The position numbers and the translations under genes are program-made. DNA of 64,000 nucleotides from Bacteroidia bacterium (lineage in GTDB: Bacteria; Bacteroidota; Bacteroidia; Chitinophagales; Saprospiraceae), in the NCBI GenBank assembly GCA_030430845.1, contig JAUIKE010000001.1, positions 3,545 to 67,544 of the forward strand. The letters run 5' to 3'. Each line of letters opens with the position of its first letter. Within the stretch, counting starts at the first letter, position 1. The notes under the pieces are model-generated. The model did no database searches. It worked only from the letters and a program-made list of their open reading frames with translations, and was not told where the DNA came from. Positions 5,709 to 21,700 of this stretch are shown in pieces.

Positions 5709-6206
5709 TTATTTTTTAGGTTTTCTTTTTTTCTTTATATGGTCTTTGAAAGCACCGGAAATGGTGCTGGGATCGATCCCATCCACCCGATCTTCCAACT
5801 CTGGCGGGAGATCTCTTTTTAATTGATCTGGTTCAATTGCGGCTAAGAGCTTAGCTATTTCAGCCCCTTCAACCGAGGTGTCCTCAAGCTCGTCCAGGAT
5901 CAGGTCATAAGTGATCAGGTAAATTTTATTGCCATCGTATCTGAGCCCTCCGGATATGATCAACTGGCCTTTTGCCTGGCGGTCGTTTTTTAGTTTATCG
6001 GCCAAATCTTTTATAGCTTCCATTACATTATTGCGCGTGGCCTTTTTGCCTTGCAGGATTTGCATATCAGAAGATCCCATCTCAAGGCGATTCATCCAGT
6101 CTTCCACCTTGTTGATATATTCGCTAAAATCGGGCAAATTACCCAGCTCCGGATGCTCATTTGCATTGATTATCAGAACATAAATTTTATCATATACTTG
6201 GCTCAT
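5709..6206 (-). CDS. truncated caspase-like paralogue lacking the catalytic His and Cys (pseudo-caspase)
   Basis: It aligns in register with aa 8-137 of the neighbouring caspase-like protein. Examples: KATRNNVMEAIKDLADKLKN vs EATLKNILRELKLLSEKTKN, and KIYLITYDLILDELEDTSVEGAEIAKLL vs KYYLVPYDFDLLIPEDTALEDSEFAKKI. The His motif SGHGY is replaced by SGGLRY. The protein ends before the Cys strand (no LLLIMDSC equivalent) and has a basic tail KKKRKPKK. It lies 27 nt downstream of the NACHT gene. Confidence 0.65.
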   Translation of the reverse strand: MSQVYDKIYVLIINANEHPELGNLPDFSEYINKVEDWMNRLEMGSSDMQILQGKKATRNNVMEAIKDLADKLKNDRQAKGQLIISGGLRYDGNKIYLITYDLILDELEDTSVEGAEIAKLLAAIEPDQLKRDLPPELEDRVDGIDPSTISGAFKDHIKKKRKPKK

Positions 6207-6233
6207 AATTTGGGTTTTAAGTAAAAAATTGAC

Positions 6234-9200
6234 TTACCTATCTTCATATATCTCTTCCTGTTCCTTTGTATACAAGACAGCTCCGTAATGTAGCAGCATC
6301 TCAAATTCATTATCGGTAAGCGGTTCGATCCACTGTACTTTTGTCAGATCCAGTCCTTCCACCTTCAGCCCTGTATAATTCATGATGCTTTTTTCAAGTT
6401 TCGTATTTTCCATGTTCCATTTTTTGAGGGTCAGGTCCTGCGAGGTCGAATACAGGTATTTTCCTTCATCGTCAAAGCTCAAATCAATGATATAGTCAGT
6501 ATGGCCAATAAACTTCCTGATGTTGATTTCATTAGTATCTCGATTCAAAGTAATTTCAATCAGGCTTTTATTGGTGCCGGCCATGATTTTATTCAAATCC
6601 TTATGATAGGCTGCATAGGTAAAATACTCCTCAGTATCAGAAACATCTATGATCAGCCGTTCTTCGCGAGTATCTATATTCCACTCTTTCAACTTCCCAT
6701 CCATACCTCCCGAGAGTAGATAATTTGCTAAGACATCCATAGTAAAAACACCGTCACCATGGTCAAATTCTGCAACAGGTTTATCTTCTTCCAAATCTGC
6801 ATCCCAAACAAATAAGCGGCCATTCACCTCACTGACGATAACAAAAAATCGGTTTTCGTCGACCATGATCGCTACCTGGGTAATAGATTTCCTTACAGTC
6901 CTGGTACGATAAGATCTTATTTGTTTTCTTTCTTTCAAGGACCATAGATTGAGTCGCCCATTCATATCTCCGGAAGCGACGATCCCCGCTTTATTATTGA
7001 TAGCAAGAGAGGTTACCGTGGCTTGATGCTCTTCAAATGCCCACTTCAACTTTCCCCTCAAATCCCATATTTGAATGAGACCGTCCTCCCCAGCTGTGAC
7101 GATGCGGTCGGTTTCTCCTCTGTCAGTTTCGTAATATCCAATGGCATAAGGCGGGGAAGAAGCCTGAAGCTTGTATTTAAATGCCAGGGTATCACTATCT
7201 AATCCCTGAATGTCACCATTTTCCGAACATGCCAGCACGAATGGAGAACCAGGCATTTTGCAGATGGCATTGTAAGGGATCAGATGAGGAGAAAAAGCAT
7301 GCTCGACCTGCCCAGTAGCGGTCGACCATTTTTTGATCGAGCCGTCAAAGGAGCCGGAAAAGAAATAATTTTCATCTTTCAGGTACACGATACTGGAAGC
7401 TCGCCGGACGTGCCCTTTAAACACCTGTGTGACAGAATGCTGTCGAGCCCCCTGGGGGTCTTTTAAGGCCCATTCATAGATGTAATCATCCAGTCCTGCG
7501 ACCAATAAATATTCTCCGGACGGGCTGTAAGCCACATCAGCGCTGTAAAACTGAGGATTGTTCTTAGGTGGATTGACAAAATGAAACACTTTTTGTTCCT
7601 TGTCAAAATCTATTTTCCATTCTTTAATGATCCACTCCATACTGCCCAAAGTTCCTTCCAAAGACACGGCGACGAAGAACCTGCTATCCGGGCTCAAAGC
7701 CAGTGCGACCACATTTTTGTGAGGATACACCCTGGTTTTTATTTTGGTAAGGGTAGATATTTCGATTAAAGCTTGGTTCTTCCCGCCTACCAAAATGGCA
7801 TTTCCTCCCTTGATATACCGAAAACACTGGGCTTGCTTTCCATCCGGATAGAACCATGAGCGGCACTGCCCGTCACGAGTTGACCATTCCCCCATTTTTC
7901 CATCATCATACAGAGCCATGATGGTTGCTCCATCCGGATGATATTCTATTTGGAGGATACCGGTTTTATGGCCTCGCAGAACTTTCAATGCCTGGCCGGT
8001 TTCTACCGACCACTCGATGATTTTATTATCCAGGCCTCCGGAAGCGATTTTTTGACCATCGGGGCTGAAGGCGACCGTCCCCACTTCGTCGTTATGGCGG
8101 TGAATGCCTCCTAGGTCATGGAAATGTTCCAGGGTACTCAATTTCCACAATTTCACATGCCCTGATCGGGATGCCGAAGCTAAAATCTGACCGTCAGGGC
8201 TTAGCCTTACTACGTTCACTTCACTTTCATGGCCTTCTGAGAATAATTGCTTGGGGGCCAGGTAGCTTTCGTCCCATTTACTGTCGATGGCATAGCCCTT
8301 ATCCCCAGGCACCACTACCCGGCGACAATCGATCCCATTAAAATTAAAGCCGCTCAGGTGTAGGTCAGACAGATCGACTCCTGCAAAGCTCCCCCTCAAT
8401 TTTTTCCAGATATGCAGGATGTTCCACACACAATGGCCTATTTTTTCTTTTTCAAATATACCCCGGCAAAGATCAACCACATGGCCCAGGCTGGTTTTTT
8501 GTCTGTAATCCTCCCATTTCAATTTAGGGTTTGCAAATTCAGGCTTGTTGTAATGCTCGCCGGCCAACTCCCCCAAAGTTTTTTGAAGGTTCTCAGGAAG
8601 GACCTGATCCCTTAAAACAGAAGGGATCTCTCCTTTTTCCAAAGAAGCATTTATCTCATTCAATACATGCCGGGCTGCGAAGTATTCCTGAAAAGACTGG
8701 TGGGTAAACCTCAGGACCCAACCTTCCTTGGCAACCGGAAACAGCGCTTTGGCCAGGTCCTGGGCCAGGCGTTCAAAGCGACCAATTTCTTTGACCAAAG
8801 ACAATTCTCCGATCTGTAAATACTGGATACCCATCCGATATCTTTTGATATGACTCCGGAAACTAAATTCTTTGAAAAAATCCGGTTCGCTGAATCGATT
8901 AAAAGCTACTCTGACGATTTGTTCCAGTTCTTTTTCCGTAATCTCCTGGACTTGTGCTTTTTCCATATGGTAAGCAATGAAGGGCAGCACGTAATGAATG
9001 GTAAAATGGCATCGAGTGCGCAATTCAGCCAGTTCCTCTCCTTGAGATTCTTTTTCAAATTTATGCAACTGGATCTCCAGGTAATCCCAAATGAGCTCAG
9101 CCGTACTGTTGATCGGCCGAAGGGTATTAGGCATATCTGCCAATTGCTCATTTTGCAGGCCGGCGTATAATCGCAGCATCATCGGAATGGTCAGCAGATC

Positions 9201-10202
9201 TTTGAGATCCTCATTGATCGCATTAAATTTCTCCTCCTTTTTGTCATCTTCGAGGAATAAGTAAGCTTTGACCTGCTCTTCTGATAAAGGTATGACCTCC
9301 AGTTTTTCAAAACTTTCGGTAAATGGGTGGTTCGATTCAAAACGAGAACTAACGATCATCCTAAGGTGGCCTTTATTGGCCAAAGGGGCCCATTTTTCAT
9401 TCAGATCGATCAGTAATGGGGTAATATCCGTAGTGATCTCGTCCAATCCATCTAAGATCAAAAGCACATCTTCCAGACCGGCTTCCTTTCCTTTTATTGA
9501 ACCGTTGTTTTCACCGCTCAGCCATTTCCGTAAATTTTGTTCCGACTCACTATCCAGGCGAGGGCGTCCCAGGTAGTATTCCGCAATATATTGTGTAATG
9601 AAGTTTTCGCGAATCAATGGAGAAACCCTGTTGTATTGATTTAAGGCAATGTAAATAGGGATGATATTTTTCCCGGCTCGATTTTTCCCTTTCTTCTTAC
9701 CGCTTGAGTCCTCTTTTTCTTTACCATGTCCTATCAATTGCTTCCAGGCCCACAACAGGGATACCGTTTTACCCATTCCCCCCTCTCCGGTTAGGAAGGT
9801 ATTACGCTCGGTTTCCTGAAGGTGGTCCATCAAAGAAACGACGGCTTCTGTCTCTTCTCCTACGGTAACATTGGCCAGCAGATGCTCGCTATACTCCAAA
9901 TGTTCGAAACGACCATCAGGGCCTGTAATTCCTTCATAGAAGAAATAAGAACCTTTATTCAATAACTTAGCGATCTCCTCTACCTTCAGTCCTTGCTGCC
10001 CCTGAAAGATCTGGGTGATCTTATTACCGCCTACAATATCACCGACTGATAAATTACCGCCTCCGGTGCTGATATTCTCAAAAAAATGCCCTTTCGATTC
10101 CTTCTTGATGATGGTTTGGGAATGGTCGTGAAAATCTCTGCCGGCGACCTTATTATGATCGCCTGTTACATTTTGGTTTACGGATTGGTCTTGTTTTAAC
10201 AT
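6234..10202 (-). CDS. NACHT-family STAND NTPase with about 14 C-terminal WD40 repeats and an N-terminal Gly/Asp-rich motif (bacterial NLR-like protein)
   Basis: Walker A GEGGMGKT (aa 139-146, nt 9765-9788) and Walker B VLLILDGLDE (aa 246-255). Helical NACHT-associated region extends to about aa 640. About 14 blades end in xxxW motifs (VKLWKL, IIEWSV, MGEWST ... LKKWNM; roughly nt 6333-8240). The N-terminal 70 aa are homologous to the caspase C-terminal region. Confidence 0.9.
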   Translation of the reverse strand: MLKQDQSVNQNVTGDHNKVAGRDFHDHSQTIIKKESKGHFFENISTGGGNLSVGDIVGGNKITQIFQGQQGLKVEEIAKLLNKGSYFFYEGITGPDGRFEHLEYSEHLLANVTVGEETEAVVSLMDHLQETERNTFLTGEGGMGKTVSLLWAWKQLIGHGKEKEDSSGKKKGKNRAGKNIIPIYIALNQYNRVSPLIRENFITQYIAEYYLGRPRLDSESEQNLRKWLSGENNGSIKGKEAGLEDVLLILDGLDEITTDITPLLIDLNEKWAPLANKGHLRMIVSSRFESNHPFTESFEKLEVIPLSEEQVKAYLFLEDDKKEEKFNAINEDLKDLLTIPMMLRLYAGLQNEQLADMPNTLRPINSTAELIWDYLEIQLHKFEKESQGEELAELRTRCHFTIHYVLPFIAYHMEKAQVQEITEKELEQIVRVAFNRFSEPDFFKEFSFRSHIKRYRMGIQYLQIGELSLVKEIGRFERLAQDLAKALFPVAKEGWVLRFTHQSFQEYFAARHVLNEINASLEKGEIPSVLRDQVLPENLQKTLGELAGEHYNKPEFANPKLKWEDYRQKTSLGHVVDLCRGIFEKEKIGHCVWNILHIWKKLRGSFAGVDLSDLHLSGFNFNGIDCRRVVVPGDKGYAIDSKWDESYLAPKQLFSEGHESEVNVVRLSPDGQILASASRSGHVKLWKLSTLEHFHDLGGIHRHNDEVGTVAFSPDGQKIASGGLDNKIIEWSVETGQALKVLRGHKTGILQIEYHPDGATIMALYDDGKMGEWSTRDGQCRSWFYPDGKQAQCFRYIKGGNAILVGGKNQALIEISTLTKIKTRVYPHKNVVALALSPDSRFFVAVSLEGTLGSMEWIIKEWKIDFDKEQKVFHFVNPPKNNPQFYSADVAYSPSGEYLLVAGLDDYIYEWALKDPQGARQHSVTQVFKGHVRRASSIVYLKDENYFFSGSFDGSIKKWSTATGQVEHAFSPHLIPYNAICKMPGSPFVLACSENGDIQGLDSDTLAFKYKLQASSPPYAIGYYETDRGETDRIVTAGEDGLIQIWDLRGKLKWAFEEHQATVTSLAINNKAGIVASGDMNGRLNLWSLKERKQIRSYRTRTVRKSITQVAIMVDENRFFVIVSEVNGRLFVWDADLEEDKPVAEFDHGDGVFTMDVLANYLLSGGMDGKLKEWNIDTREERLIIDVSDTEEYFTYAAYHKDLNKIMAGTNKSLIEITLNRDTNEINIRKFIGHTDYIIDLSFDDEGKYLYSTSQDLTLKKWNMENTKLEKSIMNYTGLKVEGLDLTKVQWIEPLTDNEFEMLLHYGAVLYTKEQEEIYEDR

Positions 10203-10219
10203 AAGGTATTAGACTTGTA

Positions 10220-10250
10220 AAATCGTAAGCGCTGGTGGCGCTTACGATTT
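10220..10250 (-). promoter_or_regulatory. intercistronic stem-loop between the caspase-like gene and the NACHT gene
   Basis: Perfect 13-bp stem aaatcgtaagcgc / gcgcttacgattt with a 5-nt loop. It fills most of the 55-nt gap. On the minus strand only 4 T follow it, so it is a weak terminator at best. Confidence 0.5.
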
Positions 10251-10257
10251 CTATAAA

Positions 10258-11730
10258 TTACTTAAACCATTCCCCGACTTTTCCAGCGATCTTCTTCAAA
10301 GCCACGGCGGCACCTGCAGGCGGGTTGATGATCGTGGCAGAGATGGTTTCCAGGATATCAGGGGCATTCTCTTTTAGGGTTCCGATCCATCTTTTGAGCT
10401 TGCTTTCCTTAGGCTCGGGCTTTTGGATCTCTTGTTCGATTTTTTCGACGGTTTCCTTTAATTCTTCCCGGTCGATGTCTTCATGATCTTCGGGCCACTG
10501 CTCGACCTTGGCATAGGCTTGCTGGAAGATCTGCGCCAGCACATCTCCCGAAACGCCCTCGGTGATGGTGTTGCCCTGACCGCCCAACTGCACATTGTGG
10601 CCGCTGATATCTCCGGTTTCAAACTTATCTCCTCCGACATGATCTCCTATAGTAAAGTCTCCACCGCCCGTATTCACTCCTTCTATCATGTGGCCTCCAG
10701 AGGTTTTGCTATTATCTGTTGTAGAATTATCGGTCAGATCTCCGCCGGCCACTTTATTATGATCTCCTGCGACATTAATGTTCAGGATCTGCTCTACAGA
10801 AGGCGGCTCCTCTCCTTCCGGGATACCTTCTCCGCCCATCAGCATGGAGATATCGAATAGCTTGCCGTCGAAGCCAAAGTCGGGCTCCTGATTGGCATTG
10901 TGGAGTTCCATAGTGGTTCCGGGAACTTTGGAGCCTACATAGCTCATCACATCAAACACATTCACCATGGTCGGTTCGCCGGCTTCGGCGCGCTTGCCGT
11001 GTCCGTTCAGGGCTTCGATGAGGTGGTAGGTAAAGACGCTCATGCCCAGTCTTTCATGCAGGTAAGAGAGCTGATGCCCTTGCGAGGAGGTCAGGACGGC
11101 GCGGGAGGGCTTTTTGGGATCGGGCTCTTCTTCGCCGTTGCCACCGCCGGGTTTAGAGCCTGAAGAGCTACTACCATCTTCCTTGTTTTTTACTATTTTT
11201 GCTCCGCTTACACCAAATGCTTCCAGATTGGCTGCATGGACAGTGAAGCCTTCCGGTCCATCCGATTGACCTCCGCCGGCGGTAGTGCCTCCTGCATAGC
11301 AGCTATCCATTATCAACAATAGCCGTTGAGCCTTAATCTGATCAATTTTTTTAGCGAATTCGCTGTCTTCCAAAGCAGTATCTTCTGGAATTAGCAAGTC
11401 AAAGTCATAGGGTACTAGATAATATTTTTCGGTTTCTGAGTTTAAATAGCCATGTCCTGAAAAATAAACTAAAACTGTAGAATCAGTCTGGTTCTTAGTT
11501 TTTTCACTTAACAGTTTCAGTTCACGAAGGATATTCTTTAAAGTTGCTTCCGTTCCTGTCAGCACAACCACATTCTCTGATTGATATCCACATTTTGCAG
11601 GATCAATCAAGACTTCTTTAAGCCGAATAACATCTGTGGCTGTCTCTGGCAAGGCTGGCGCGTCGGCCGTATTTTCCTGATCGCTGACGCCGATCAGCAA
11701 AGCATATCCTTTTTCAAATGTATTGCTCAT
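10258..11730 (-). CDS. caspase-like (peptidase C14 family) protease with C-terminal Gly/Asp-rich motif and helical tail
   Basis: The caspase/metacaspase catalytic dyad context is intact: VLVYFSGH(93)GY and LLLIMDSC(144)YAGG, followed downstream by AVLTSSQGHQLSY. A Gly/Ser/acidic linker covers aa 146-205. The motif covers aa 311-404. The C-terminal 85 aa are charged and helical in character. Confidence 0.85.
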   Translation of the reverse strand: MSNTFEKGYALLIGVSDQENTADAPALPETATDVIRLKEVLIDPAKCGYQSENVVVLTGTEATLKNILRELKLLSEKTKNQTDSTVLVYFSGHGYLNSETEKYYLVPYDFDLLIPEDTALEDSEFAKKIDQIKAQRLLLIMDSCYAGGTTAGGGQSDGPEGFTVHAANLEAFGVSGAKIVKNKEDGSSSSGSKPGGGNGEEEPDPKKPSRAVLTSSQGHQLSYLHERLGMSVFTYHLIEALNGHGKRAEAGEPTMVNVFDVMSYVGSKVPGTTMELHNANQEPDFGFDGKLFDISMLMGGEGIPEGEEPPSVEQILNINVAGDHNKVAGGDLTDNSTTDNSKTSGGHMIEGVNTGGGDFTIGDHVGGDKFETGDISGHNVQLGGQGNTITEGVSGDVLAQIFQQAYAKVEQWPEDHEDIDREELKETVEKIEQEIQKPEPKESKLKRWIGTLKENAPDILETISATIINPPAGAAVALKKIAGKVGEWFK

Positions 11731-11758
11731 TTCTTTTGAATTTGGAGGTTTATAAGTG

Positions 11759-13942
11759 TTATGAAAATAGTTTAGATTTTTCGTCCCGGAGTTTGAAAGG
11801 CAAACGGATGATTACCCTGGTTCCCATACCTTCTCCATTGGTATCTTTTAGATCAATAATTTCGATTCGGGATCCTTTAATGTTACCTGATGCCTTCAGA
11901 CGTTCCTCTGTGATCTTCATTCCGTGGGACTGGTGTTTGAAAACGGAATTAGCTTTCATTTCTCTCGACCTTTCCCGTCCGATCCCGTCATCTTCGATGA
12001 TGCAGACCAGTTTTTTATCGTTCCTTTCAATTTTGATGGATACTTGTCCTTTGCCCTCTTTGGGTTTAATCCCGTGCCAGATGGCATTTTCTACATAGGG
12101 CTGTAGGATCATGGCGGGTACTTCGATCCGGTCGGTTTGTAAGCCTTCCGAAACGGCGATATCGTAGTGCAGCTTATCCTGAAACCGTAGTTGCTCAAGG
12201 TCCAGAAAGTTTTTAATGGTTTTCAGTTCATCTGTCAAACTGATATTTGGCGCTCGGGAGCTGTTAAGGATTTGTCGGTTTAATCTCGAGAATTTGATCA
12301 GGTATTTGGAAGCCGCTTCCTTATTCCCTCGATTGATCAGGCTTTCGATAGCATTGAGACTGTTGGAAATAAAATGGGGGTTGATTTGGGCTCTTAGGGC
12401 TTCCATTTGAGATTTTAATCTTTTCTGCTCGGCTCTTTGTAGGAAAAGAAGGAAAATTAGACCGGCTACAGACAATACACCCAGGCTAATCAATAATAAC
12501 TCCCTTCTCTTCCGGGCACTGGTCCGGTCATTTTCCAATCTTTCCATTTCCCGTACCCGGTAATTTGCCTCGGTAAGATTACGTGTCATTAAGTCAGCAA
12601 CTTTTTTGTAGCTTTTTGCAACATACTCTATAACATCTCCCCCAAAAATTTCATCACAATTGCCTTGCCCCTCCAATTGTTTGTCGATGCAATTTGCCAA
12701 AATATTATATGAGAGATAATCCATCATTGAAAGCACACCTTTCTCCTTTGCATCCTGGAGCGCCTTCTTATAAAAAACCAGAGCACTATCTATATAAACG
12801 TAAGCCTGATCATAATAGAAACTCGCTGAGTCTGAGTTCTCGAACTTAATGGACTTAAGATATTCGACATACGCACGTTCCGAATAGGTAATCCCTAGCC
12901 GGCCATAACTATGATATAAATCTTCATTTTGGATGGCTATTCGGTCATGAAGCACTTTTACAGCCTTTGAAAACAGGTCATTATCTCCAATTAGAAGATA
13001 TTGCCCAATTAAGGATTTGCTTTGGATTCTGTAAACCTCATTCAACAAGTCATTCTTTCTTTTAAGACTAGCCGTTGAGAAGCTTAAATCTAGCAATGAA
13101 TCAGCCTTATTATACTTCTCTTCATTTACCCAAAGCATGGCTTCATGTGCATTTAGCCTTGCTAAGCCTATTTCATTTTTGCATCGTATGTAATTTTTTC
13201 TACTTTCCCCATAATACTTTCTTGCAATCTCAACGTCCTCATTTTCAAAGGAAACACCTATATCATGTTGGATTTCTGCCACTAGATACAACGAATCTAT
13301 TTCCTCTAATCCAGAAGTTTTTAATGTTTCCAATGCTTTTTGGAAATATCCCCTAGCTGTATCCAGCTTCAAAGGCCTATCTTCCTCATACTGTCTATAG
13401 TGAATAATCCCAATCAAATCATATACCCTCACCAACCACTTCTTCTCACCTAATCGATCAAACAATAAGCGACTCATCTCCGCATCTACCAGAGCATCCT
13501 CGATTCCTCCGCCCCAAATTTGTAATCGCCGCTTCATTAGGGCGATGTAATACAGGCTAATCGCCCGTTGCAGGTCCCAGTTTTGATCAGTGGCCAGGTC
13601 ATAGGCCTGTTCGGCATAGAACAGGGCCACACCCGGGTCAAAGCCTTTTAAGCGGTCGGTCATTACCAGGAGGCTGTCTACTTGCCTGGCTTTCTTGGGC
13701 AGCTTGAGAACTGCCTCCATTACCGAGACGGTATCCACTAGGTCTTCCAGATCTTCGGTAGCGTAGTCCACTTGTCGGAAGAGCTCGTCGTCTATCCTGG
13801 GTTGTGGCTGGCAGGAGCAGAGCAAGATGAATAAAAGAAGGTAAAGCAGTTTCAACAAAAGCCCGATACGCTTGTAGCAATCGTTCACTGGAGTAATTGC
13901 GGTGGTGTGATCATATACTTGCGTAGGTGCTTCCTTGGGCAT
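11759..13942 (-). CDS. sensor histidine kinase, TPR-like N-terminal region plus LytS/YehU-type kinase core
   Basis: Lipobox-like N-terminus (LLFILLCSCQ), a long helical-repeat region and a TM segment LLLISLGVLSVAGLIFLLFL. The His_kinase motif INPHFISNSLNAIESL and HATPase_c motifs (YVENAIWHG, EDDGIG, GMGTRV) follow. No response regulator is nearby. Confidence 0.85.
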   Translation of the reverse strand: MPKEAPTQVYDHTTAITPVNDCYKRIGLLLKLLYLLLFILLCSCQPQPRIDDELFRQVDYATEDLEDLVDTVSVMEAVLKLPKKARQVDSLLVMTDRLKGFDPGVALFYAEQAYDLATDQNWDLQRAISLYYIALMKRRLQIWGGGIEDALVDAEMSRLLFDRLGEKKWLVRVYDLIGIIHYRQYEEDRPLKLDTARGYFQKALETLKTSGLEEIDSLYLVAEIQHDIGVSFENEDVEIARKYYGESRKNYIRCKNEIGLARLNAHEAMLWVNEEKYNKADSLLDLSFSTASLKRKNDLLNEVYRIQSKSLIGQYLLIGDNDLFSKAVKVLHDRIAIQNEDLYHSYGRLGITYSERAYVEYLKSIKFENSDSASFYYDQAYVYIDSALVFYKKALQDAKEKGVLSMMDYLSYNILANCIDKQLEGQGNCDEIFGGDVIEYVAKSYKKVADLMTRNLTEANYRVREMERLENDRTSARKRRELLLISLGVLSVAGLIFLLFLQRAEQKRLKSQMEALRAQINPHFISNSLNAIESLINRGNKEAASKYLIKFSRLNRQILNSSRAPNISLTDELKTIKNFLDLEQLRFQDKLHYDIAVSEGLQTDRIEVPAMILQPYVENAIWHGIKPKEGKGQVSIKIERNDKKLVCIIEDDGIGRERSREMKANSVFKHQSHGMKITEERLKASGNIKGSRIEIIDLKDTNGEGMGTRVIIRLPFKLRDEKSKLFS

Positions 13943-14107
13943 GGGTGGCGATTTTCTTAAAAATAGTAATTCATCTAATTTTTTCTAATCTTTCGTTTAA
14001 AAACATACTTAAATGTATTACATATATTTTAAAGAAAAGGCGTGGTTGTGGTAAGTGGTAAAGATTGGGTGGTAGGTGGGGAGGATTAGCGGGTAAGTGG
14101 AGAAGTT

Positions 14108-14296
14108 GACACTGGGGGCACTGTTTTTTTTGGACACTGGGGACACTGGGACCACTAGGGGCGCTGTTTTTTTTGGACACTGGGGACACTGGGACCACTG
14201 GGGGCACTGTTTCTTTTTTTGGACACTGGGAACACTGGGACCACTAGGGGCGCTGTTTTTTTTGGACACTGGGAACGCTGAGAACACTAGGGGGTT
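14108..14296. repeat. tandem repeat, about 4.5 copies of a 43-46 bp unit, in a divergent intergenic region
   Basis: Units at 14132-14174, 14175-14220 and 14221-14263, with partial copies at both ends. Consensus: GGACACTGGGRACACTGGGACCACTRGGGGCRCTG followed by a T8-10 tract. Each unit contains 9-bp sub-repeats (GGACACTGG / GGACACTGG / GACCACTAG). Confidence 0.9.
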
Positions 14297-14388
14297 GAGG
14301 GGGAAAGGGAAGTCAAAATTTCAGGATGTCAGTTAATTTTTATAAATTATGCTATTCATCAATTTTCTAATCTCAAAAACCAGATTAC

Positions 14389-14598
14389 ATGGCTATTGTA
14401 AAAGTAATTGAAGTCATTGCTTCCTCAGAAAAAGGCATTGAAGACGCCGTTGAAAAAGCGGTCAAAGAAGTCAGCAAAACCGTCCGTAATATTGATTCGG
14501 TGTATGTCAAAGACATCAAAGCCCATGTGAAGGATGGGAAGATCAGTACTTATGGAGTCATCTGCAATGTTTCCTTTAGGGTTCAGGATGACGATTAA
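14389..14598 (+). CDS. dodecin family flavin-binding protein
   Basis: The 69-aa protein MAIVKVIEVIASSEKGIEDAVEKAV...KISTYGVICNVSFRV matches the dodecin pattern: a beta strand, the SSE(K/E)G motif, a helix, then two strands. Confidence 0.8.
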   Translation: MAIVKVIEVIASSEKGIEDAVEKAVKEVSKTVRNIDSVYVKDIKAHVKDGKISTYGVICNVSFRVQDDD

Positions 14599-14602
14599 AA
14601 AT

Positions 14603-14638
14603 AAAGAAGGCGACCGAGTGGTCGCCTTCTTTATTTTA
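14603..14638. terminator. bidirectional intrinsic terminator between convergent genes
   Basis: 10-bp GC-rich stem gaaggcgacc / ggtcgccttc with loop gagt. It is flanked by an A-run upstream and tttatttt downstream. Confidence 0.75.
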
Positions 14639-15670
14639 ATTTTTTCTTCGCTTTACCGTTGTTTTCTTTTTGGCTCCTGCTGCCCTTTTATTCCCACTTT
14701 TTCCTCTCACCTTGGTAGTGGAAGTTTTTGCCTTAGCAGTTCCTTTCTTTCCACTGGCTTTAGCACTCTTCGTCGTTCGTGTACCCTGGATTTTCTTGTT
14801 ACCATTTTTACCCTGAACGGTAGTAGTTGATTTACGAACGGTAGCGGACTTATTGCCCTTAGTGACAGTAGCAGTTTTGGTATTGCGAGTCACATTAACC
14901 TTCTTATCTGCCCGGTATTTGGTAATGGAAGCGGAATGACGGGTTTTGACCGTCACGGAATGCGTGCGACGAGGCGTATAAACACGATGAGCTCTTACCA
15001 CTCTGTGGGTTGTCACCACATGGTAGTTACGAGGGTACCATACTCGTTTAACAGAGAACCAACCAAACGGACGAGGCTTCCAGGGACGCCACCATCTGGG
15101 ATAATAGCCCCAATAGTAAGGAGACCTATACACCACATAGCCAGGCCTGTATAGGTAACGGACGCTCGGCCAAAAGTATACATTGACCACTACGCGGACA
15201 TAATCATCCATTTGCGCACCACCGTGGCCGCCCCCATTTCCTTCTTCTTCAAAAGGTTCGACAATCTTGGATTCTCCAAAAATATCTTCATCTCCAAGGA
15301 TTTGGAGAATGGCTGATTCGGCGCCGTTTTTCTCGATTTCGATCACTGCGATATCCTGGGATTCTTTTTCAGAAATGACGGCTTGCAGTACAAGGGCATG
15401 AGCATCCCCATCCGCATTATCGATGACACGGATATAATCGATATCTCCATCTTCATTCAAGTCCAGGTTGTTGACGATCTTATCTTCGGTATTCAGTGAT
15501 TTTTCAAAATCTTCGAGTGACCCAGATTTCTTAAACAATTCCAGTGCTCCTTCCAGGCTAAAACCATCGCCCGGTAAGCCTGTGGCTTCTTGTTGAGATT
15601 GACCGAAAGCAAGGGCAAAAGAGCTTAGGAAAAAAATAAGGGTGAAGGAAAAAAGATGCAAAGTTTTCAT
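14636..15670 (-). CDS. secreted hypothetical protein with EF-hand-like loop and Lys/Thr-rich basic tail
   Basis: Signal peptide MKTLHLFSFTLIFFLSSFALAFGQ. Calcium-loop-like DLNEDGDIDYIR. Aromatic/Arg-rich middle (YYWGYYPRWWRPWKPRPFGW). C-terminal ~110 aa are K/T/A/G-rich and low in complexity. Confidence 0.7.
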   Translation of the reverse strand: MKTLHLFSFTLIFFLSSFALAFGQSQQEATGLPGDGFSLEGALELFKKSGSLEDFEKSLNTEDKIVNNLDLNEDGDIDYIRVIDNADGDAHALVLQAVISEKESQDIAVIEIEKNGAESAILQILGDEDIFGESKIVEPFEEEGNGGGHGGAQMDDYVRVVVNVYFWPSVRYLYRPGYVVYRSPYYWGYYPRWWRPWKPRPFGWFSVKRVWYPRNYHVVTTHRVVRAHRVYTPRRTHSVTVKTRHSASITKYRADKKVNVTRNTKTATVTKGNKSATVRKSTTTVQGKNGNKKIQGTRTTKSAKASGKKGTAKAKTSTTKVRGKSGNKRAAGAKKKTTVKRRKN

Positions 15671-15912
15671 GTTTGATTTTTTTTCATTTTAGACTATCAG
15701 AAAACTTATTGGTTTAATTCGATTCATTTTTTTTATACATAATTACAAAAATCTGGAATTTTTTTTCGTTTTTGACATCTAATTACGAATTATATTAGCC
15801 TTATCAGACCTAAGCATTAAAAAATATTAAAATCCACCCGCCGAAGATGGGATGATTTTCTATTACTTTTTAATATCGGAGCTAAAAAGGCCGAACACAT
15901 ACTACAAAACTC

Positions 15913-16785
15913 ATGGAAGCAAATTTTTTGACGACTGTATTACTGCCTGGTTCTCTATTTATTATCATGCTCGGAATGGGTTTGTCTTTGAGTATTGATG
16001 ACTTCAAAAGAGTGGTTCAATATCCCAAAGGAGTCATGGTAGGTTTATTCAATCAAATGATCCTGCTCCCCATCATTGGGCTGTTACTAGCCATTACATT
16101 TAAGCTCTCTCCTACTATGGCAGTTGGATTGATGATCCTGTCGGCCTGCCCGGGAGGAACAACCAGTAACTTGATCACGCACGTCGCCAAAGGAGATACC
16201 GCCCTGTCTATTAGTCTGACCGCCATTGCCAGTTTTATTACGGTTTTCACGATACCCTTGATCACGAACTTTGGTCTGAATTTCTTTTTAGAAGAATCGT
16301 CCAGGATCAGTCTGCCATTTTTAAAGACTATTGCTCAGATAGTTGGTATCACCGTATTGCCTGTATCTATCGGCATGATCATCAGGAAACGCAACAAAAA
16401 TTTTGCCGACCGGATGGAGAGGCCCGCCCGCATTGCTTCCACCATTATTTTTGTAACGATTCTCATGCTCATCGTTGTGAGCAATTGGACTATGCTGATT
16501 ACTACCATCCAGCAAATAGGCCTGGTTTGTTTTGTCTTGAATGCGGCTACTATGCTCACCGGTTATCTGGCCGCCAGGTTATTTAACTTTGAGTTAAAAC
16601 AAGCTTTGTCCGTAATAATAGAAAGTGGCATACAAAACGGCACCCTGGCGATTGTGGTGGCCAGTTCTATATTGCTACAGCCCGAGATGGCTATTCCGGC
16701 TGCTATTTATTCCGTGTTTATGTTTTTATCGGGGGGCCTGATCATGTTTGTTTTTGGAAGGCGTAAGGCACCGGCACTGGCCTAA
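15913..16785 (+). CDS. bile acid:sodium symporter (BASS/SBF) family transporter
   Basis: About 9-10 hydrophobic helices and the family-typical SACPGGTTSN motif. Confidence 0.85.
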   Translation: MEANFLTTVLLPGSLFIIMLGMGLSLSIDDFKRVVQYPKGVMVGLFNQMILLPIIGLLLAITFKLSPTMAVGLMILSACPGGTTSNLITHVAKGDTALSISLTAIASFITVFTIPLITNFGLNFFLEESSRISLPFLKTIAQIVGITVLPVSIGMIIRKRNKNFADRMERPARIASTIIFVTILMLIVVSNWTMLITTIQQIGLVCFVLNAATMLTGYLAARLFNFELKQALSVIIESGIQNGTLAIVVASSILLQPEMAIPAAIYSVFMFLSGGLIMFVFGRRKAPALA

Positions 16786-17048
16786 ACAGCCTAAATAAGG
16801 CATCTGGTTTTCTATAATTCAGTCGATTTTAAAAAAAATAAAATTAAATTAGGTATATTAGGATAACACTATTTTTTATTCCCCAAAAACATGGTTATTG
16901 TGAAATATTATTTTCATAAAAAAATGCAATAGGTAAATCAACAGGAGCCTCGCAAAAAACACATCCACTACAGATTAAAGAAAGGTACCCCAGGCAAGAG
17001 ACAGAACTTAATACAATCCATATTCATTACCTTATCTCCCATTGATTT

Positions 17049-17636
17049 ATGAAAAGTAAAACCGATAAAAAAGAGAAAAAATGGATTAAAAAGCTGGCCA
17101 AAGGAGATGAACGGGCTTTTCAAAAGATATATGAAAAGCATTGGGAGCAATTATATCTGGCTGCCTACAAAAGACTAGACTCCTCAACAATTGCCGAGGA
17201 ATTGGTCCAGGATCTTTTTATGGACCTTTGGACCAAAAGAGCTTCTGTCAATATAAGAAGCTCGCTTGGTGCCTATCTCGCCGGTGCCCTAAAATATCGA
17301 ATACTAGACCATATGAGGCACCAGCTTGTAAGGGAAAAATACATCCGCCACCTTACTCAGTATTACATTACTGAAAAAAATGAGGTACTGGAAAATATCT
17401 ATTCACAAGATTTGCAAGAACAACTGCAACTTGCCGAAAATCAGCTTCCTCCACGCTGCTATACCATTTATCAATTAAGCAGAAAGCATCACTTCAGCAA
17501 TAGAGAAATTGCGGAGCATCTGGAGATTTCCACTAAGACCGTCGAAAACCAGATCACCAAAGCTTTGCGGATGCTGCGCACCCATCTGACAAAGGTGTCT
17601 ACCCTATTCTCTTTAATAGGAATGCACTGGTTCTAG
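17049..17636 (+). CDS. ECF-type RNA polymerase sigma-70 factor
   Basis: Sigma-70 region 2 (FQKIYEKHWEQLYLAAYKRL ... DLFMDLW) and a region 4 HTH (FSNREIAEHLEISTKTVENQITKAL). It immediately precedes the FecR-like gene. Confidence 0.9.
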   Translation: MKSKTDKKEKKWIKKLAKGDERAFQKIYEKHWEQLYLAAYKRLDSSTIAEELVQDLFMDLWTKRASVNIRSSLGAYLAGALKYRILDHMRHQLVREKYIRHLTQYYITEKNEVLENIYSQDLQEQLQLAENQLPPRCYTIYQLSRKHHFSNREIAEHLEISTKTVENQITKALRMLRTHLTKVSTLFSLIGMHWF

Positions 17637-17734
17637 AAAGACAAAAACACATTTTTTCATTTTTTTTTACTTCTGCATAGGGGTACGCCCCTATTTAGCC
17701 GACTATTTAATAAACCATACAAACAAAGTTCTTC

Positions 17735-18694
17735 ATGTCATTAAAAGAATTGGAGTCCAGGATTAGAAAGTTTTTAAGTGGCCATAACAGCCCACAAGGC
17801 CGAAAATTGTTCGATCAGTGGTATGACTCATTCGACAATCAAAACGCATCCCTCTCCCATGATCAGAAACATCAGATAAAAAAACGGATGTATCAAAACA
17901 TTCAAAGCCAGATGGAGGCTTCAAAAACACGAAACAAAGGCTCTCAAGCATTAAGAAGAAGACTTATTACCGCTACGAAGGTTGCCGCAAGTATCGCTTT
18001 GATCGTTTCAGTCCTTTGGGGTGTCCAGCGGTGGAGTGCTCAGGAAATGCTCATTCACCAAACAGCATTTGGAGAAACCAAACAGCTACAATTACCCGAC
18101 GGCACCATCGTCAACTTGAATGCCAACTCCAGTCTTCGTTATGCTGGCAACAATCCGCGGGAAGTCTGGCTGGAAGGGGAAGGCTTTTTTGAGGTAAGGA
18201 AAAAACCAAGGACAAAAGCCGTTTTTTTGGTTCATACTCAAGATCTCGTCATCGAAGTATTAGGAACGGCCTTCAATGTCAATAGTCGACATGAAAAAAC
18301 CGAGGTCGTACTGGAAGAAGGTAGTATTAAACTCAACCTTGAAGATGGAAAAGAGGAGATGATGGAGCCCGGTGATCTGATTGCGTATTCCGGTAAAGAG
18401 GCCAGGATATTGGAAAGGGATACAGCCGTATCAACTGAAGTGCACAGCTCCTGGAAAAACGGCACCATTCTCTTAGATCTGACTACATTAGATGAGGCTA
18501 CACAAAAAGTGGCGGATCATTACGGAGTAGCCTTCAAATTCGGCACGAACAGCCTCAAAGAAAAGGTGATGAACGGAGGGGTGCCTATGGACAACCTTGG
18601 TGTAAGTCTTCAGATGTTAGAAATAACCTTCAGTATACAAATTGACCAAAAGGGCTCCTATTACCTGATCACACAGGATGAGGGTCCCCAATAA
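17735..18694 (+). CDS. FecR-family anti-sigma factor / transmembrane sensor
   Basis: Cytoplasmic N-domain, a single TM (VAASIALIVSVLWGV) and a periplasmic FecR domain (LPDGTIVNLNANSSLRY ... GEGFFEV). It sits between the ECF sigma and STN-SusC genes. Confidence 0.9.
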   Translation: MSLKELESRIRKFLSGHNSPQGRKLFDQWYDSFDNQNASLSHDQKHQIKKRMYQNIQSQMEASKTRNKGSQALRRRLITATKVAASIALIVSVLWGVQRWSAQEMLIHQTAFGETKQLQLPDGTIVNLNANSSLRYAGNNPREVWLEGEGFFEVRKKPRTKAVFLVHTQDLVIEVLGTAFNVNSRHEKTEVVLEEGSIKLNLEDGKEEMMEPGDLIAYSGKEARILERDTAVSTEVHSSWKNGTILLDLTTLDEATQKVADHYGVAFKFGTNSLKEKVMNGGVPMDNLGVSLQMLEITFSIQIDQKGSYYLITQDEGPQ

Positions 18695-18770
18695 GCTTTA
18701 CCCCTGTAAGGATAAAACACTGTTTTTACCGTAAAGAAGGGATAGTACTTAAAATCTAAAATCTTTGTGT

Positions 18771-21700
18771 ATGAAAACTTTTAAACCGTGCTACTTAAGC
18801 ATTTTGCTTATCTTTTTACTGGCGCAGCTGCCACTGCAGCTACCGGCCCATAACCATGAAGTTCCCGAAGAGGGCACCAAGCCCCTTATCGAAGCTTTAA
18901 AAGAATTAAGTGAAAAATTCCAGGTATTTTTCACCTATGATGTTTCCTTGGTCAAAAATATTGAGGTAGCAGACAAGCCCCTGGAGCAGGCTAACCTCAA
19001 GTTTATAATTGATGACCTATTAGCAGATACCGGCTTAAAATACGAACTGCTCGATACCCGGTATTATGTAATTTATAAAGACACAAAGAAGGGAAAGGGC
19101 AGCGTCAAAAAGATCCGCAAAAAAATGAAGCAGATCAAAAAACTGGAGGATTCCGGCAATCTGCGCCTTCAAAGGACCAGCCCAAATGATCCGGTCAACC
19201 AGCTGACGAGCCTTCAAACAAGCTTAAAGGAGCTTACCTCGGACGTGACCATTACCGGTACTGTTACGGATGAAGAAGGCGTTCCTCTGATCGGAGCCAC
19301 CGTTCAGGAAATTGGCACCACTAATGGAACACTGACCAATGCCGATGGCGATTATTCTATTGATGTAGCGGACGGAGCTACCCTCGTTTTTTCCTATGTG
19401 GGATACAATCCACAACAGGTACGGGTAACGGCTGGGACCACCGTTATCGACATCACGATGACCGAAAACGTTTCTGCGCTTGATGAGGTTGTAGTAGTTG
19501 GATATGGCCGCCAGCAAAAAAGAGATATTACAGGCTCGGTAGCCACTCTATCCGCTCAGCAAATTGCAGACCTTCCGCTGTCCAATTTTGAAAATGCTAT
19601 CCAGGGGCAATTAGCCGGCGTGCAGGTGAGTGAAACCAGTGGAGAGCCCGGTGCAGGACCTACCATTCGGGTAAGAGGAGTGGGTTCCATCTCCGCAGGA
19701 AATGAACCCTTGTATGTTATTGACGGCTTTCCTATTTCAAAAAATGTAGATCTTGGGGTGCAGGGAGATAACTTCCGCCGCGGAACCGGGCGTTTCCGTC
19801 CTCCTTCTCAAAACCCACTGGCCACCCTCAGTCCCAATGATATCGAATCTATCCAGGTACTCAAAGATGCCTCCGCTGCCTCTATTTATGGCTCCAGAGG
19901 GTCCAATGGGGTTATCTTAATTACCACCAAAAGAGGAAAACGCAAAGGAAAACCGCGTGTTTCCTACGATGCCTTCGTAGGAAGTCAGTCGGTAGCGAAC
20001 CGCCTGGATTTAATGAATGCAGAAGAACTGATCGATTATAACCGAGACGCGACTAACAACGCCTACCTCGATAATAATCCCGGAGCCAGCCCCAGTGATC
20101 CGAATTCAATGAGGTCTAATGCCGCCTGGCGACTGTCCGATGATGTACTGAACCCGGATGGGACGGATACCGACTGGCAGGATGAAATGTTCAGTACTGC
20201 CTTACTTCAAAGCCACAATCTTTCCGTAGCCGGTGGTTCAGACAATATGAGCTACTACGTGTCCGGCAACTTTTACAATCAGGACGGCATTATTAAAGGT
20301 TCCGGCTTTGACCGATACAGTTTTCGTCTGAACCTGGAGGCGGATCTTTCACAAAAAATGAGATTGGGTGTTAATCTGAATCCTTCTTTCACTACTTCAG
20401 ATAAACTACCTGCCGGATCGCCCTACTTTGCCCGTCCTCCGGGAATCGTTTATTCCGGTATCGTGCATTCACCAACCGTAAAGCCCCGCAACCCAGATGG
20501 GACTCCTAACCAGTTGGATAATCAGAGTTACTTGCTGACACCCGAAGGAGAAGCTTCTTCTTTCACCTCGGCCAGTAATCCTCTGGCTATTATGGAAGCT
20601 ATTGATGACCAGTTGAACCAATTTAGGACCTTAGGTAATCTTTCACTTGAATATGATCTGGCAGAAGGCTTGACCTTTAAAACTTTCCTTGGCATCGATA
20701 TAAATAACTACAAGCGTAACTTCTTCCGCAAGAACAGCCTGTTGTATAGAGAGGCGGCCACCGGAGAGCCCTATGGCCAATCCAGTTCTTCAGAAAGTGT
20801 CAACTGGCTGGCGGAGCAAACTCTGACCTACAGCACCACTTTAGGAGACGGTCACAATATCACCGCTTTGGCTGGCTATACCGCTCAAAAAGAAAAGATC
20901 GACATTAATAATGTGATTGCAGATAACTATCCGGATGACCTCGTACCGACTGTCAGTGGAGGCCAGGTAGTAAATGGTTCGGCTGACCAGGAAGAATGGT
21001 CACTGGTATCCCTACTCGCTCGTATCAATTACGATTATAATGACCGCCTCTTGGTGACTGCCTCTTTCCGTTCTGATCGTTCTTCCCGTTTCGGAGCGGG
21101 TAATAAAACGGGGATATTCCCGTCTTTCTCCCTGGGTTATCGAATATCTGAGGACATTGGCGCCACTTGGTTAAGCGATTTGAAATTAAGAGCCAGTTGG
21201 GGAAAAACAGGGAACTTCCTGATCCCGAATTATGCTTCTATCGGTTTGTTAGGTACTTATAATTATACCTATGGAGGCACTCTTAACAATGGAATTGCAC
21301 CATCCACGATCAGCAACCAGGATCTGAGTTGGGAAAAGACCAGTTCGTACGACATTGGAATTGATTTTGGTTTCTGGGATGACAGAGTTTACGGTTCTGT
21401 AGAGTATTATAATGCTACTACCTCTGATCTCCTGCTGGAAGTCCAGGTTCCTGCCGCACTTGGTTTCACCAATGCTTTGACCAACATAGGCGAGGTGGTG
21501 AATAAAGGGATTGAGTTTTCTTTGACCAGCCGCAATACGGTCGGCAAATTCAAATGGACAACGGATATCAACTTCTCCACGCTAAACAACGAAGTAACCA
21601 AATTAGGGCCGGACGGAGCACCTATCCTGAGTGCCGGTGGAGCAGGCAACCGCCACATCACCATGATCGGAGAGTCGATCGGTAGTTATTTCGGATATGT

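Follow-up and report, generated by a model that had tools for sequence, protein, structure and literature searches.

Within a 64,000-nt stretch of a Saprospiraceae genome (Bacteroidia bacterium, GenBank assembly GCA_030430845.1, contig JAUIKE010000001.1; hereafter the window), positions 5709–13942 of the minus strand carry four co-directional open reading frames (ORFs) separated by gaps of 28, 55, and 27 nt. In gene order they encode a histidine kinase, a caspase-like protease, an NLR-like protein, and a protein of 165 amino acids (aa), and the kinase gene ends 28 nt upstream of the caspase gene. An earlier reading of the same DNA (the original prediction) had described the last three as minus-strand genes 27–55 nt apart, and the ORF coordinates are exactly as given there, with gaps of 55 and 27 nt. 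A terminator scan detected no convincing minus-strand terminator within the block. Our analysis shows that the caspase and the NLR-like protein (NLR) carry a matching set of short motifs, by which the sensor most likely recruits the protease. The genes and their parts are listed below.

11759–13942, minus strand: LytS-type sensor histidine kinase, 727 aa (Pfam)
10258–11730, minus strand: caspase-like protease, 490 aa, with C14 domain, motif-bearing linker, and TCAD2 (Pfam, alignment, AlphaFold2)
10831–11730, minus strand: metacaspase/paracaspase-like C14 catalytic domain of the protease, aa 1–300 (Pfam, alignment, AlphaFold2, Foldseek)
10555–10794, minus strand: caspase linker, aa 313–392, with three Gly/Asn/Asp-rich motifs
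10276–10536, minus strand: TCAD2 helical C-terminal domain of the caspase, aa 399–485 (Pfam PF19971, 9e-14)
6234–10202, minus strand: NLR-like protein, 1322 aa, with N-terminal motifs, NACHT NOD module, and WD40 repeats
10020–10190, minus strand: NLR N-terminal motifs A and B, aa 5–61, cognate to the caspase linker
8283–9917, minus strand: likely NACHT-type NOD module, aa ∼96–640 (motifs, Pfam on orthologues)
6378–8255, minus strand: WD40 sensor region, aa ∼650–1275, ∼14 blades (Pfam, self-built hidden Markov model)
5709–6206, minus strand: 165-aa dead N-terminal caspase half with acidic linker and AFKD tail (BLASTP)

Comparison of the two larger proteins showed that residues 313–369 of the caspase and residues 5–61 of the NLR are 54% identical over 57 aa (E 4e-15). 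The caspase linker carries three motifs of ∼20–25 aa each, namely A (“NINVAGDHNKVAGGDL”), B (“IEGVNTGGGDFTIGDHVGGDKF”), and C (“ETGDISGHNVQLGGQGNTITEG”). Motif A has the consensus N.NV.GDHNKVAG.D and motif B the consensus [ST]TGGG[DN][FL]..GD.VGG[DN]K. Motif C (GDISGHNVQLGGQGNT) is found in the caspase only; it has no partner in the window and matches the N-terminus of NLR-A in the related locus L001. The shared stretch is the sole long unstructured part of the AlphaFold2 model of the caspase (predicted local distance difference test, pLDDT, ∼30) and lies between well-folded C14 and C-terminal domains. Pfam searches of the NLR N-terminus and the caspase tail with E-values up to 10 revealed no EAD or bDLD, only TCAD2 matches, which leaves the shared stretch outside any Pfam family. 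The nucleotide identity of the two motif copies is 58.5%, and the same codon is used in 10 of the 31 identical residues, indicating that the likeness is kept on the peptide and not on the DNA. Recent gene conversion as the source of the motif sharing was rejected on the same grounds.

The motifs match in a locus-specific manner. Our related loci (designated by L numbers) stem mostly from metagenome-assembled genomes and metagenomes, and many of their contigs are truncated. When caspase tails were scored against NLR N-termini, cognate pairs came out far above non-cognate ones: the cognate score is 163 in the window (best non-cognate score 79), 149 in L004 (58), 77 and 73 in L001 (61), and 73 in L002 (59), and the cognate score in L007 is weak. 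The two scores of L001 reflect a single caspase with two different motifs, each matching one of two downstream NLR paralogues. Among 142 loci, the best N-terminal match comes from the own locus for 20 of the 78 caspase tails, as against ∼0.55 expected by chance. The best-matching partners in other phyla are STAND NTPases as well, namely NACHT-FGS, NACHT with EAD7 or EAD10, NB-ARC-TPR, and nSTAND1 proteins.

Some relatives dispense with the motifs. In L016, L087, L089, and L090, a direct fusion joins the caspase domain to the same NACHT-WD40 module, with neither motifs nor TCAD2 in between, and the NOD family also includes members whose N-terminal domain is phosphoesterase-like or kinase-like. 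Because such caspase fusions exist, caspase and NLR can be regarded as one functional unit, in which the motif stands in for a covalent link. As judged from the sequences, the matching motifs most likely let the NLR sensor recruit and switch on the caspase. The original prediction had proposed a sensor, a switch, and a protease encoded in trans; the cognate motif, the locus-specific matching, and the fusions all support this proposal. The motif link between caspase and NLR is absent from that reading.

The catalytic apparatus of the protease is intact. Pfam Peptidase_C14 (PF00656) matches residues 7–249 above its cut-off (E 9e-18), and G92-H93-G94, D142, and C144 are invariant across a 24-member family alignment, in which K193 is nearly invariant. 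H93 is encoded at nt 11452–11454 and C144 at nt 11299–11301, with D142 two residues ahead of C144. The predicted His-Cys dyad was thus confirmed, including its residue numbers. The AlphaFold2 model has a pLDDT of ∼90 over residues 1–300, and a Foldseek search with it returned a caspase fold: the best PDB matches are GSU0716, metacaspases 4 and 9 (AtMC4/9), and MALT1, with E-values down to 6e-9, and plant and yeast metacaspases are among the nearest neighbors. These neighbors represent the Arg/Lys-specific branch of the fold. An Asp two residues before the catalytic Cys, as D142 here, is a feature of the S1 pockets of MALT1 and metacaspases. Based on this residue and on the fold neighbors, the protease is predicted to cleave after Lys or Arg, and cleavage after basic residues has been described for orthocaspases (PMC6426788). 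A low-confidence loop of the model, residues 182–198, contains K193 and lies where an inter-subunit linker would be, which makes K193 a candidate autoprocessing site. The NCBIfam model caspase_w_EACC1 scores 95.7 bits on the caspase (cut-off 140), and an exact-sequence look-up of the protein found no record.

The NLR is tripartite, with the motifs at aa 5–61 followed by the NOD module (∼96–640) and the WD40 region (∼650–1275). Its NOD motifs comprise a Walker A (GEGGMGK145T; G139–T146, nt 9765–9788), a Walker B (LLILD251GLDE), and a winged-helix motif (RFTHQSFQEYFAA), and both Walker motifs are invariant in an alignment of eight orthologous NOD modules. NACHT is the family matched by all eight members of the orthologue set (best E 2.6e-6), and PF05729 is carried by P0121, a 40%-identical relative of the NLR. 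A profile of the NOD family aligns RFxHQSFQEFFAA (FxHxSFQEFFAA) with the same motif of NLRP3 (E ∼0.03); this profile search of PDB sequences returned nothing significant. Thus, the NOD module of the window NLR is likely of the NACHT type. The C-terminal region matches Pfam WD40 (1.3e-51) and many further beta-propeller families; a self-built repeat model scores nine WD40 blades, and their spacing fits ∼14.

The fourth gene of the block, which had been regarded as a mere neighbor, proved to be its most conserved member. The kinase matches Pfam His_kinase (1.1e-22) and HATPase_c (6.4e-6), and its inferred topology is an N-terminal hydrophobic segment, a region of ∼430 aa, and a second transmembrane segment near residues 482–502, followed by His_kinase and HATPase_c. 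An orthologue encoded in the same direction immediately precedes the rest of the block in each of the other Bacteroidota loci (L001, L002, L004, L007, L016, L045, and L143), that is, in 8/8 loci counting the window and including the fused variant L016, and genes outside the block differ in every one of them. Kinase orthologues are 45–57% identical in five loci and 31% in one, and the identity between loci is higher for the kinase than for the caspase (37–46%) and the NLR (35–46%). A LytTR response regulator adjoins the block in L004, L016, and L045; none was found in the window. The kinase probably places the operon under envelope or environmental control via a LytTR regulator. Its position directly upstream on the same strand is as originally described, whereas the TPR assigned to it was not confirmed by Pfam in the window protein and is seen only as a faint TPR_12 match in the L002 orthologue.

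The 165-aa protein aligns with residues 1–137 of the caspase (BLASTP, 29% identity, E 4e-12). Where the caspase has GH it has GG, and it stops ahead of the strand bearing the catalytic Cys; it thus corresponds to the predicted caspase paralogue lacking both catalytic residues. A search for the coupling motif in it was negative (own-locus rank 12), and this candidate was rejected. Its C-terminus carries SGAFKD at aa 150–155 (GAFKD, nt 5742–5756) and then a Lys-rich end (…ISGAFKDHIKKKRKPKK). In every other Saprospiraceae locus that is long enough, small ORFs adjoining NLR genes end with an AFKD-type motif: …GVGGFKDFMR in L001, …SGPFKDANMA in L002, and …NFAAFKDK as well as …GFAAFKDRDLKDNP in L007. 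The motif, [GA][AGP]FKD, is only five residues long. Among the 22,665 ORFs of all fetched DNA, [AGPS]FKD occurs in the last 20 residues of 11; eight of these lie in module loci (8% of the sequence) and seven of them beside NLR genes. Our locus ORFs are simple longest-ORF calls, and the 106-aa ORF of L001 and the 66-aa ORF of L002 were also called independently by the JGI and ENA gene callers. All FKD tails present a Lys followed by an acidic residue, and some proteins hold several copies of the motif.

Two related loci extend this picture. L002 encodes a full-length dead caspase (casp353, 10643–11716) between its caspase and NLR genes, in which GHG is changed to GNG and DSCH to DTAH and which carries two FKD-type motifs, and the small protein of L001 repeats IGGIKNE, a sequence identical to a stretch of the cognate caspase linker. 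What stays constant in the “third gene” is thus the FKD motif; a dead caspase fold may or may not accompany it and appears to be eroding. Alternatively, the 165-aa ORF could be a functionless, decaying remnant of a duplicated caspase with a coincidental likeness to the AFKD proteins, which would reduce the unit to kinase, caspase, and NLR. Of the fold, the protein retains no more than the first three strands, it matches no family, no other stand-alone truncated copy exists in 83 related loci, and its only close homologue is a 99%-identical copy from the same species (near-identical strain L142, second sample). The two copies differ by one non-synonymous and no synonymous substitution, too few to test selection and no evidence of constraint. 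However, the recurrence and strong enrichment of the FKD motif beside NLR genes, the two such motifs in the dead caspase of L002, and the linker sequence repeated in the L001 protein speak against mere decay, and we therefore consider a functionless remnant unlikely.

Further small proteins were observed in these loci. L007 encodes paralogous proteins of 227 and 185 aa (7358–8041 and 8851–9408) between its two NLR genes, which have an N-terminal domain of ∼150 aa in common and Gly-rich tails with G[AG]FKD-type motifs; neither has an NCBIfam match. In L001, the closest metagenomic relative, a patatin-like phospholipase gene (18664–19479) lies directly downstream of the 106-aa AFKD ORF and may encode an additional effector of that locus.

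Behind the motifs the caspase ends in TCAD2, predicted to be a five-helix bundle (AlphaFold2, pLDDT 85–94). An exhaustive search with the tail (motifs plus TCAD2) yielded 578 representative proteins; of these, 150 were listed, and almost all of the listed ones have the tail at the C-terminus or close to it. In 68 longer matches it is preceded by caspase (9), zinc-ribbon (8), EAD (7), CHAT (5), protein-kinase (4), or TIR (4) domains, and many proteins of 130–200 aa consist of little beyond this tail. A profile search with the alignment of motif and TCAD2 found nothing significant among PDB sequences, i.e., no relative of solved structure by sequence. At least 578 protein clusters contain this tail module, which follows caspase, CHAT, TIR, or kinase domains and has no solved structure. 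Its Pfam name is “ternary complex associated domain”; “TCAD” occurs neither in the text nor in the supplement of PMC7159879, and TCAD2 is interpreted here by its Pfam name. Among the proteins P0125–P0272 and in Chloroflexi loci (e.g., L011, 11369–12160, and L013, 15408–16205), there are many small proteins in which Gly-rich motifs and TCAD2 are preceded by a zinc ribbon or by nothing at all. Such small proteins match the PADLOC candidate PDC-M14B and often adjoin caspase-TCAD2 genes, so that one adaptor may be common to several effectors, or TCAD2 may itself be an effector.

On balance, we favor a four-gene module whose core NLR/effector pair recruits and activates the caspase in the manner of a split apoptosome or inflammasome. 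Binding of a ligand by the WD40 propellers would lead to nucleotide-dependent oligomerization of the NACHT module. This would cluster the N-terminal motifs, which could then capture the matching motifs of the caspase by homotypic beta-type stacking, possibly with amyloid-like templating. Proximity would activate the protease, with autoprocessing at the nearly invariant loop residue Lys193 as a candidate step, and cleavage of cellular targets after Lys or Arg would result in growth arrest or death, either as abortive infection or as regulated cell death in a filamentous host. The FKD-tailed proteins, among them the dead half-caspase of 165 aa, most likely act through their tail; they could serve as a Lys-P1 pseudosubstrate or decoy that sets the activation threshold or as a ligand of the WD40 sensor. 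The LytS-type kinase would exert transcriptional or signaling control over the operon. The parts of this model are not equally firm. That the coupling is of the amyloid type is quite possible, although we give it somewhat less than an even chance, and a role of the AFKD proteins as decoy regulators is doubtful. The most elaborate version, a bacterial “inflammasome with a brake and a dial” that combines an amyloid-like motif code (one caspase, several NLRs), FKD-tailed Lys-P1 decoys similar to cFLIP or IAP, and a gate by the LytS-type kinase, is improbable as a whole.

Several observations weigh against the recruitment model or parts of it. The assignment of the NLR as a NACHT-WD40 protein, made in the original prediction, stands as regards the P-loop, the Walker B motif, the WD40 repeats, and their ∼14 blades by spacing, but Pfam NACHT remains below threshold on the window protein (19–20 bits; cut-off 26.7), and the AlphaFold2 model of the NOD is poor (pLDDT 47). 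The latter can be explained by the small alignment, as a word-indexed homology search with the N-terminal half of the NLR made only three proteins available. The Foldseek matches of this model, ORC/Cdc6/RFC together with NOD2 and NLRP3/7/14, lend the assignment weak support. The window is flanked by housekeeping genes and not by a defense island, PADLOC recognized no complete system in the module, and a scan of viral contigs detected no relatives on them. In addition, the two copies of the 165-aa gene mentioned above give no evidence of constraint, and the roles proposed for the kinase and the AFKD proteins rest on gene linkage and the five-residue motif only.

With respect to the amyloid version, local alignment to a sample of BASS1–10 sequences (PMC8086366, supplementary file 2) gave z-scores of at most 4.4 over 60 comparisons (BASS7, BASS2, and BASS6), so that no family could be clearly assigned. 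Moreover, the motif here has an internal position, with the folded TCAD2 invariably behind it, whereas canonical amyloid-signaling effectors carry theirs at the extreme C-terminus, and part of the linker (motif C and the “GDK” repeats of Chloroflexi) is widely conserved across phyla and not lineage-specific, which fits a structured adaptor as well as an amyloid. The same architecture could thus operate with an ordinary homotypic adaptor, i.e., an unclassified EAD that makes a defined, possibly constitutive heteromeric contact and is neither amyloid nor prion-like; activation would then be allosteric or occur by induced proximity on the NACHT ring. In line with this, related cyanobacterial caspases use the Pfam-defined EAD7 or EAD10 at the same positions. 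On the other hand, neither protein has a Pfam EAD match, and the segment is of low complexity, rich in Gly and Asn, built of 20–25-aa units, unstructured in the AlphaFold2 model, and present in several copies in the effector. Low complexity, Gly/Asn richness, 20–25-aa modularity, and multiple effector copies are hallmarks that define amyloid signaling motifs (bioRxiv 10.1101/2020.01.06.895854). We therefore regard the adaptor as a real but fairly unlikely alternative to motif stacking.

The distribution of the family bears on its biological role. The closest relatives of the module are found in Saprospiraceae metagenome-assembled genomes and metagenome contigs, and the family clusters in lineages with filamentous or multicellular growth (Saprospiraceae, Anaerolineae, Caldilineaceae, and filamentous cyanobacteria); plasmid matches cover the caspase domain only. 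This concentration, together with the kinase as the most conserved and invariably linked gene, the housekeeping flanks, and the missing PADLOC system and viral relatives, would also fit a device that is not anti-phage at all but serves regulated cell death or signaling in a filamentous bacterium (damaged cells, kin or contact discrimination), with the kinase as main input and the caspase as a signaling protease. Against such a role, phage defense is the function of those bacterial NACHT proteins that have been tested to date (bioRxiv 10.1101/2022.07.19.500537), TIR, kinase, and CHAT effectors carry the tail module as well, and relatives of the caspase adjoin NACHT-FGS sensors diversified by retroelements as well as a MazE/PIN pair, a context typical of conflict systems. 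A purely non-defensive function thus seems rather unlikely to us, and the recruitment of the caspase by the NLR remains our preferred reading.

Two of the related loci contain further genes around the caspase. Behind the caspase-TCAD2 gene of L003 (Anaerolineae, GCA_016926595; positions 7498–17281) come a MazE/PIN pair and then a NACHT-FGE-sulfatase protein, which a reverse transcriptase with bAvd separates from a second FGE-sulfatase protein. Reverse transcriptase and bAvd constitute a diversity-generating retroelement, and the NLR sensor of this locus appears to be hypervariable. At positions 1318–6033 of L002, a contig of 3.2 Mb, a 121-aa ORF separates the genes of two further large caspase-domain proteins of 690 and 703 aa, which are divergent from and just upstream of the kinase gene; together the caspase genes of this locus form a caspase-rich island.

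In the surroundings of the module in the window, no gasdermin, TIR, or nuclease gene was present among the neighboring genes examined, as the original prediction had noted, and no MoxR or vWA domains were detected in 15 ORFs scanned between positions 71 and 22355. PADLOC gave no match for neighboring genes; within the module it returned a generic “caspase” (1.4e-10), PDC-M14B on the TCAD2 region (∼1e-5), and a repeat match for the NLR. A tandem repeat lies upstream of the kinase gene at 14109–14294 (43-nt unit × 4.2 or 89-nt unit × 2.1, 88–90% matches). It could represent a regulatory or phase-variable element of the operon promoter, and an 89-aa ORF at 14018–14287, which sits within the repeat, is probably spurious. 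Further upstream, positions 14389–14637 of the plus strand harbor a dodecin gene (69 aa; NCBIfam DodecBact, 2.1e-18), followed by a strong bidirectional hairpin of 18 bp (14598–14637) that also bounds a 344-aa minus-strand ORF (14636–15670). An ECF sigma factor, a FecR-like anti-sigma factor, and a TonB-dependent receptor with a CarboxypepD_reg domain are encoded at 17049–22355; this typical Bacteroidota trans-envelope signaling cluster appears to be unrelated to the module.

How does the module compare to known systems? The original prediction did not recognize the split arrangement with an added pseudo-caspase as a described system, and the novelty implied there turned out to be too strong a claim. 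The “EAD principle”, in which effectors encoded in trans are coupled to STAND and other NTPases via a shared small adaptor, has been published (PMC7159879, PMC8195603), as have NLR/effector gene pairs that share short amyloid-type motifs, including those with CHAT-metacaspase effectors (bioRxiv 10.1101/2020.01.06.895854), and TCAD2 is already in Pfam. Catalytically inactive caspases, too, have been noted in EAD-coupled systems, where many of the caspases are inactive (PMC7159879), and pseudo-orthocaspases have been described (PMC6426788).

The NLR-associated amyloid-signaling pairs comprise those in which BASS motifs link NLRs to effectors of the Bell, CHAT, TIR, or hydrolase type (Dyrka et al., bioRxiv 10.1101/2020.01.06.895854), as well as the Bab/Agp system of E. 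coli, which has experimental support (bioRxiv 10.1101/2024.11.07.622273). They share with our module effector and NLR genes that are neighbors in co-linear order, a short motif rich in Gly/Asn/Gln that is common to effector tail and NLR N-terminus, effectors that may hold more motif copies than the receptor, NACHT or NB-ARC receptors with WD40 or TPR repeats, and multicellular hosts. They differ in that the effector here is a C14 caspase and not a Bell domain, that the motif is internal, followed by TCAD2, and not clearly one of BASS1–10, that the host belongs to the Bacteroidota, and that the amyloid is a prediction. The EAD systems of Kaur, Burroughs, Iyer, and Aravind, e.g., a bDLD3-caspase with an AP-ATPase, likewise place a small non-catalytic element on an NTPase and on an effector of the same operon, with the copies of adjacent genes being most alike and caspases, including inactive ones, among the components. 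In contrast, our module has no Pfam EAD or Death-like domain and no MoxR/vWA, GTPase, or EACC1 core, and its kinase and AFKD-tailed proteins are outside those descriptions. The vWA-MoxR ternary systems, to which the Pfam name of TCAD2 points, combine MoxR AAA+ and vWA genes with a third core component, and neither MoxR nor vWA was detected among the 15 ORFs scanned here; in the two-gene EACC1-caspase system the 5′ gene encodes a single-transmembrane EACC1 protein instead of a histidine kinase. The domains of bacterial gasdermin/CARD systems are present neither in the module nor in its neighbors.

Bacterial NACHT proteins with adaptor N-termini and beta-propeller sensors have been catalogued, and bacterial Apaf-1-like proteins that combine beta-propeller sensors with N-terminal caspase-like proteases have been reported (bioRxiv 10.1101/2022.07.19.500537; 10.64898/2026.01.04.697583). 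These bNACHT/Avs systems exhibit the same tripartite order of effector or adaptor, NACHT, and repeat sensor but are mostly single polypeptides, whereas the effector here is encoded in trans and PADLOC finds no Avs or bNACHT match. The Apaf-1/caspase-9 apoptosome and the NLR inflammasomes resemble the module in that they combine a sensor of WD40 (or LRR) repeats with a STAND switch and with a caspase that is recruited by a homotypic element and activated by proximity, as is predicted here, and the catalytically dead caspase paralogue is comparable to cFLIP (PMC7586951). In our case, however, the NOD is likely of the NACHT type and not an AP-ATPase, the coupler is not a six-helix bundle of the CARD/PYD type, the protease is metacaspase/paracaspase-like with a probably basic P1, and the dead paralogue comprises only half a domain.

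A motif between folded domains also has a eukaryotic parallel. In the necrosome, the RHIM of RIPK1 and RIPK3, a short amyloid-forming motif located between folded domains, nucleates a signaling hetero-assembly. The motif described here is likewise internal; the necrosome differs in using kinases instead of a protease, and no sequence relationship between the two motifs has been shown.

The coupling principle is therefore already known. The literature we searched on prokaryotic NLR systems holds no description of the kinase linkage or of the AFKD-tailed proteins, one of them a dead caspase fragment, and these details look new. If the proposed mechanism is true, the module would be a compact bacterial counterpart of caspase recruitment by NLRs, in which a short, transferable motif code joins a separate sensor and protease; with sensor and protease being separate proteins, the coupling would be directly testable by motif swaps. 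It would also extend amyloid-type or EAD-type signaling to caspase effectors in Bacteroidota and provide three handles that are absent from current models of prokaryotic NLRs: an effector shared by several receptors, a candidate regulator of the pseudosubstrate or dead-caspase type, and a two-component input. Should motif code, FKD decoys, and kinase gate all hold true, they would add three layers of control that are so far undescribed for prokaryotic NLR systems.

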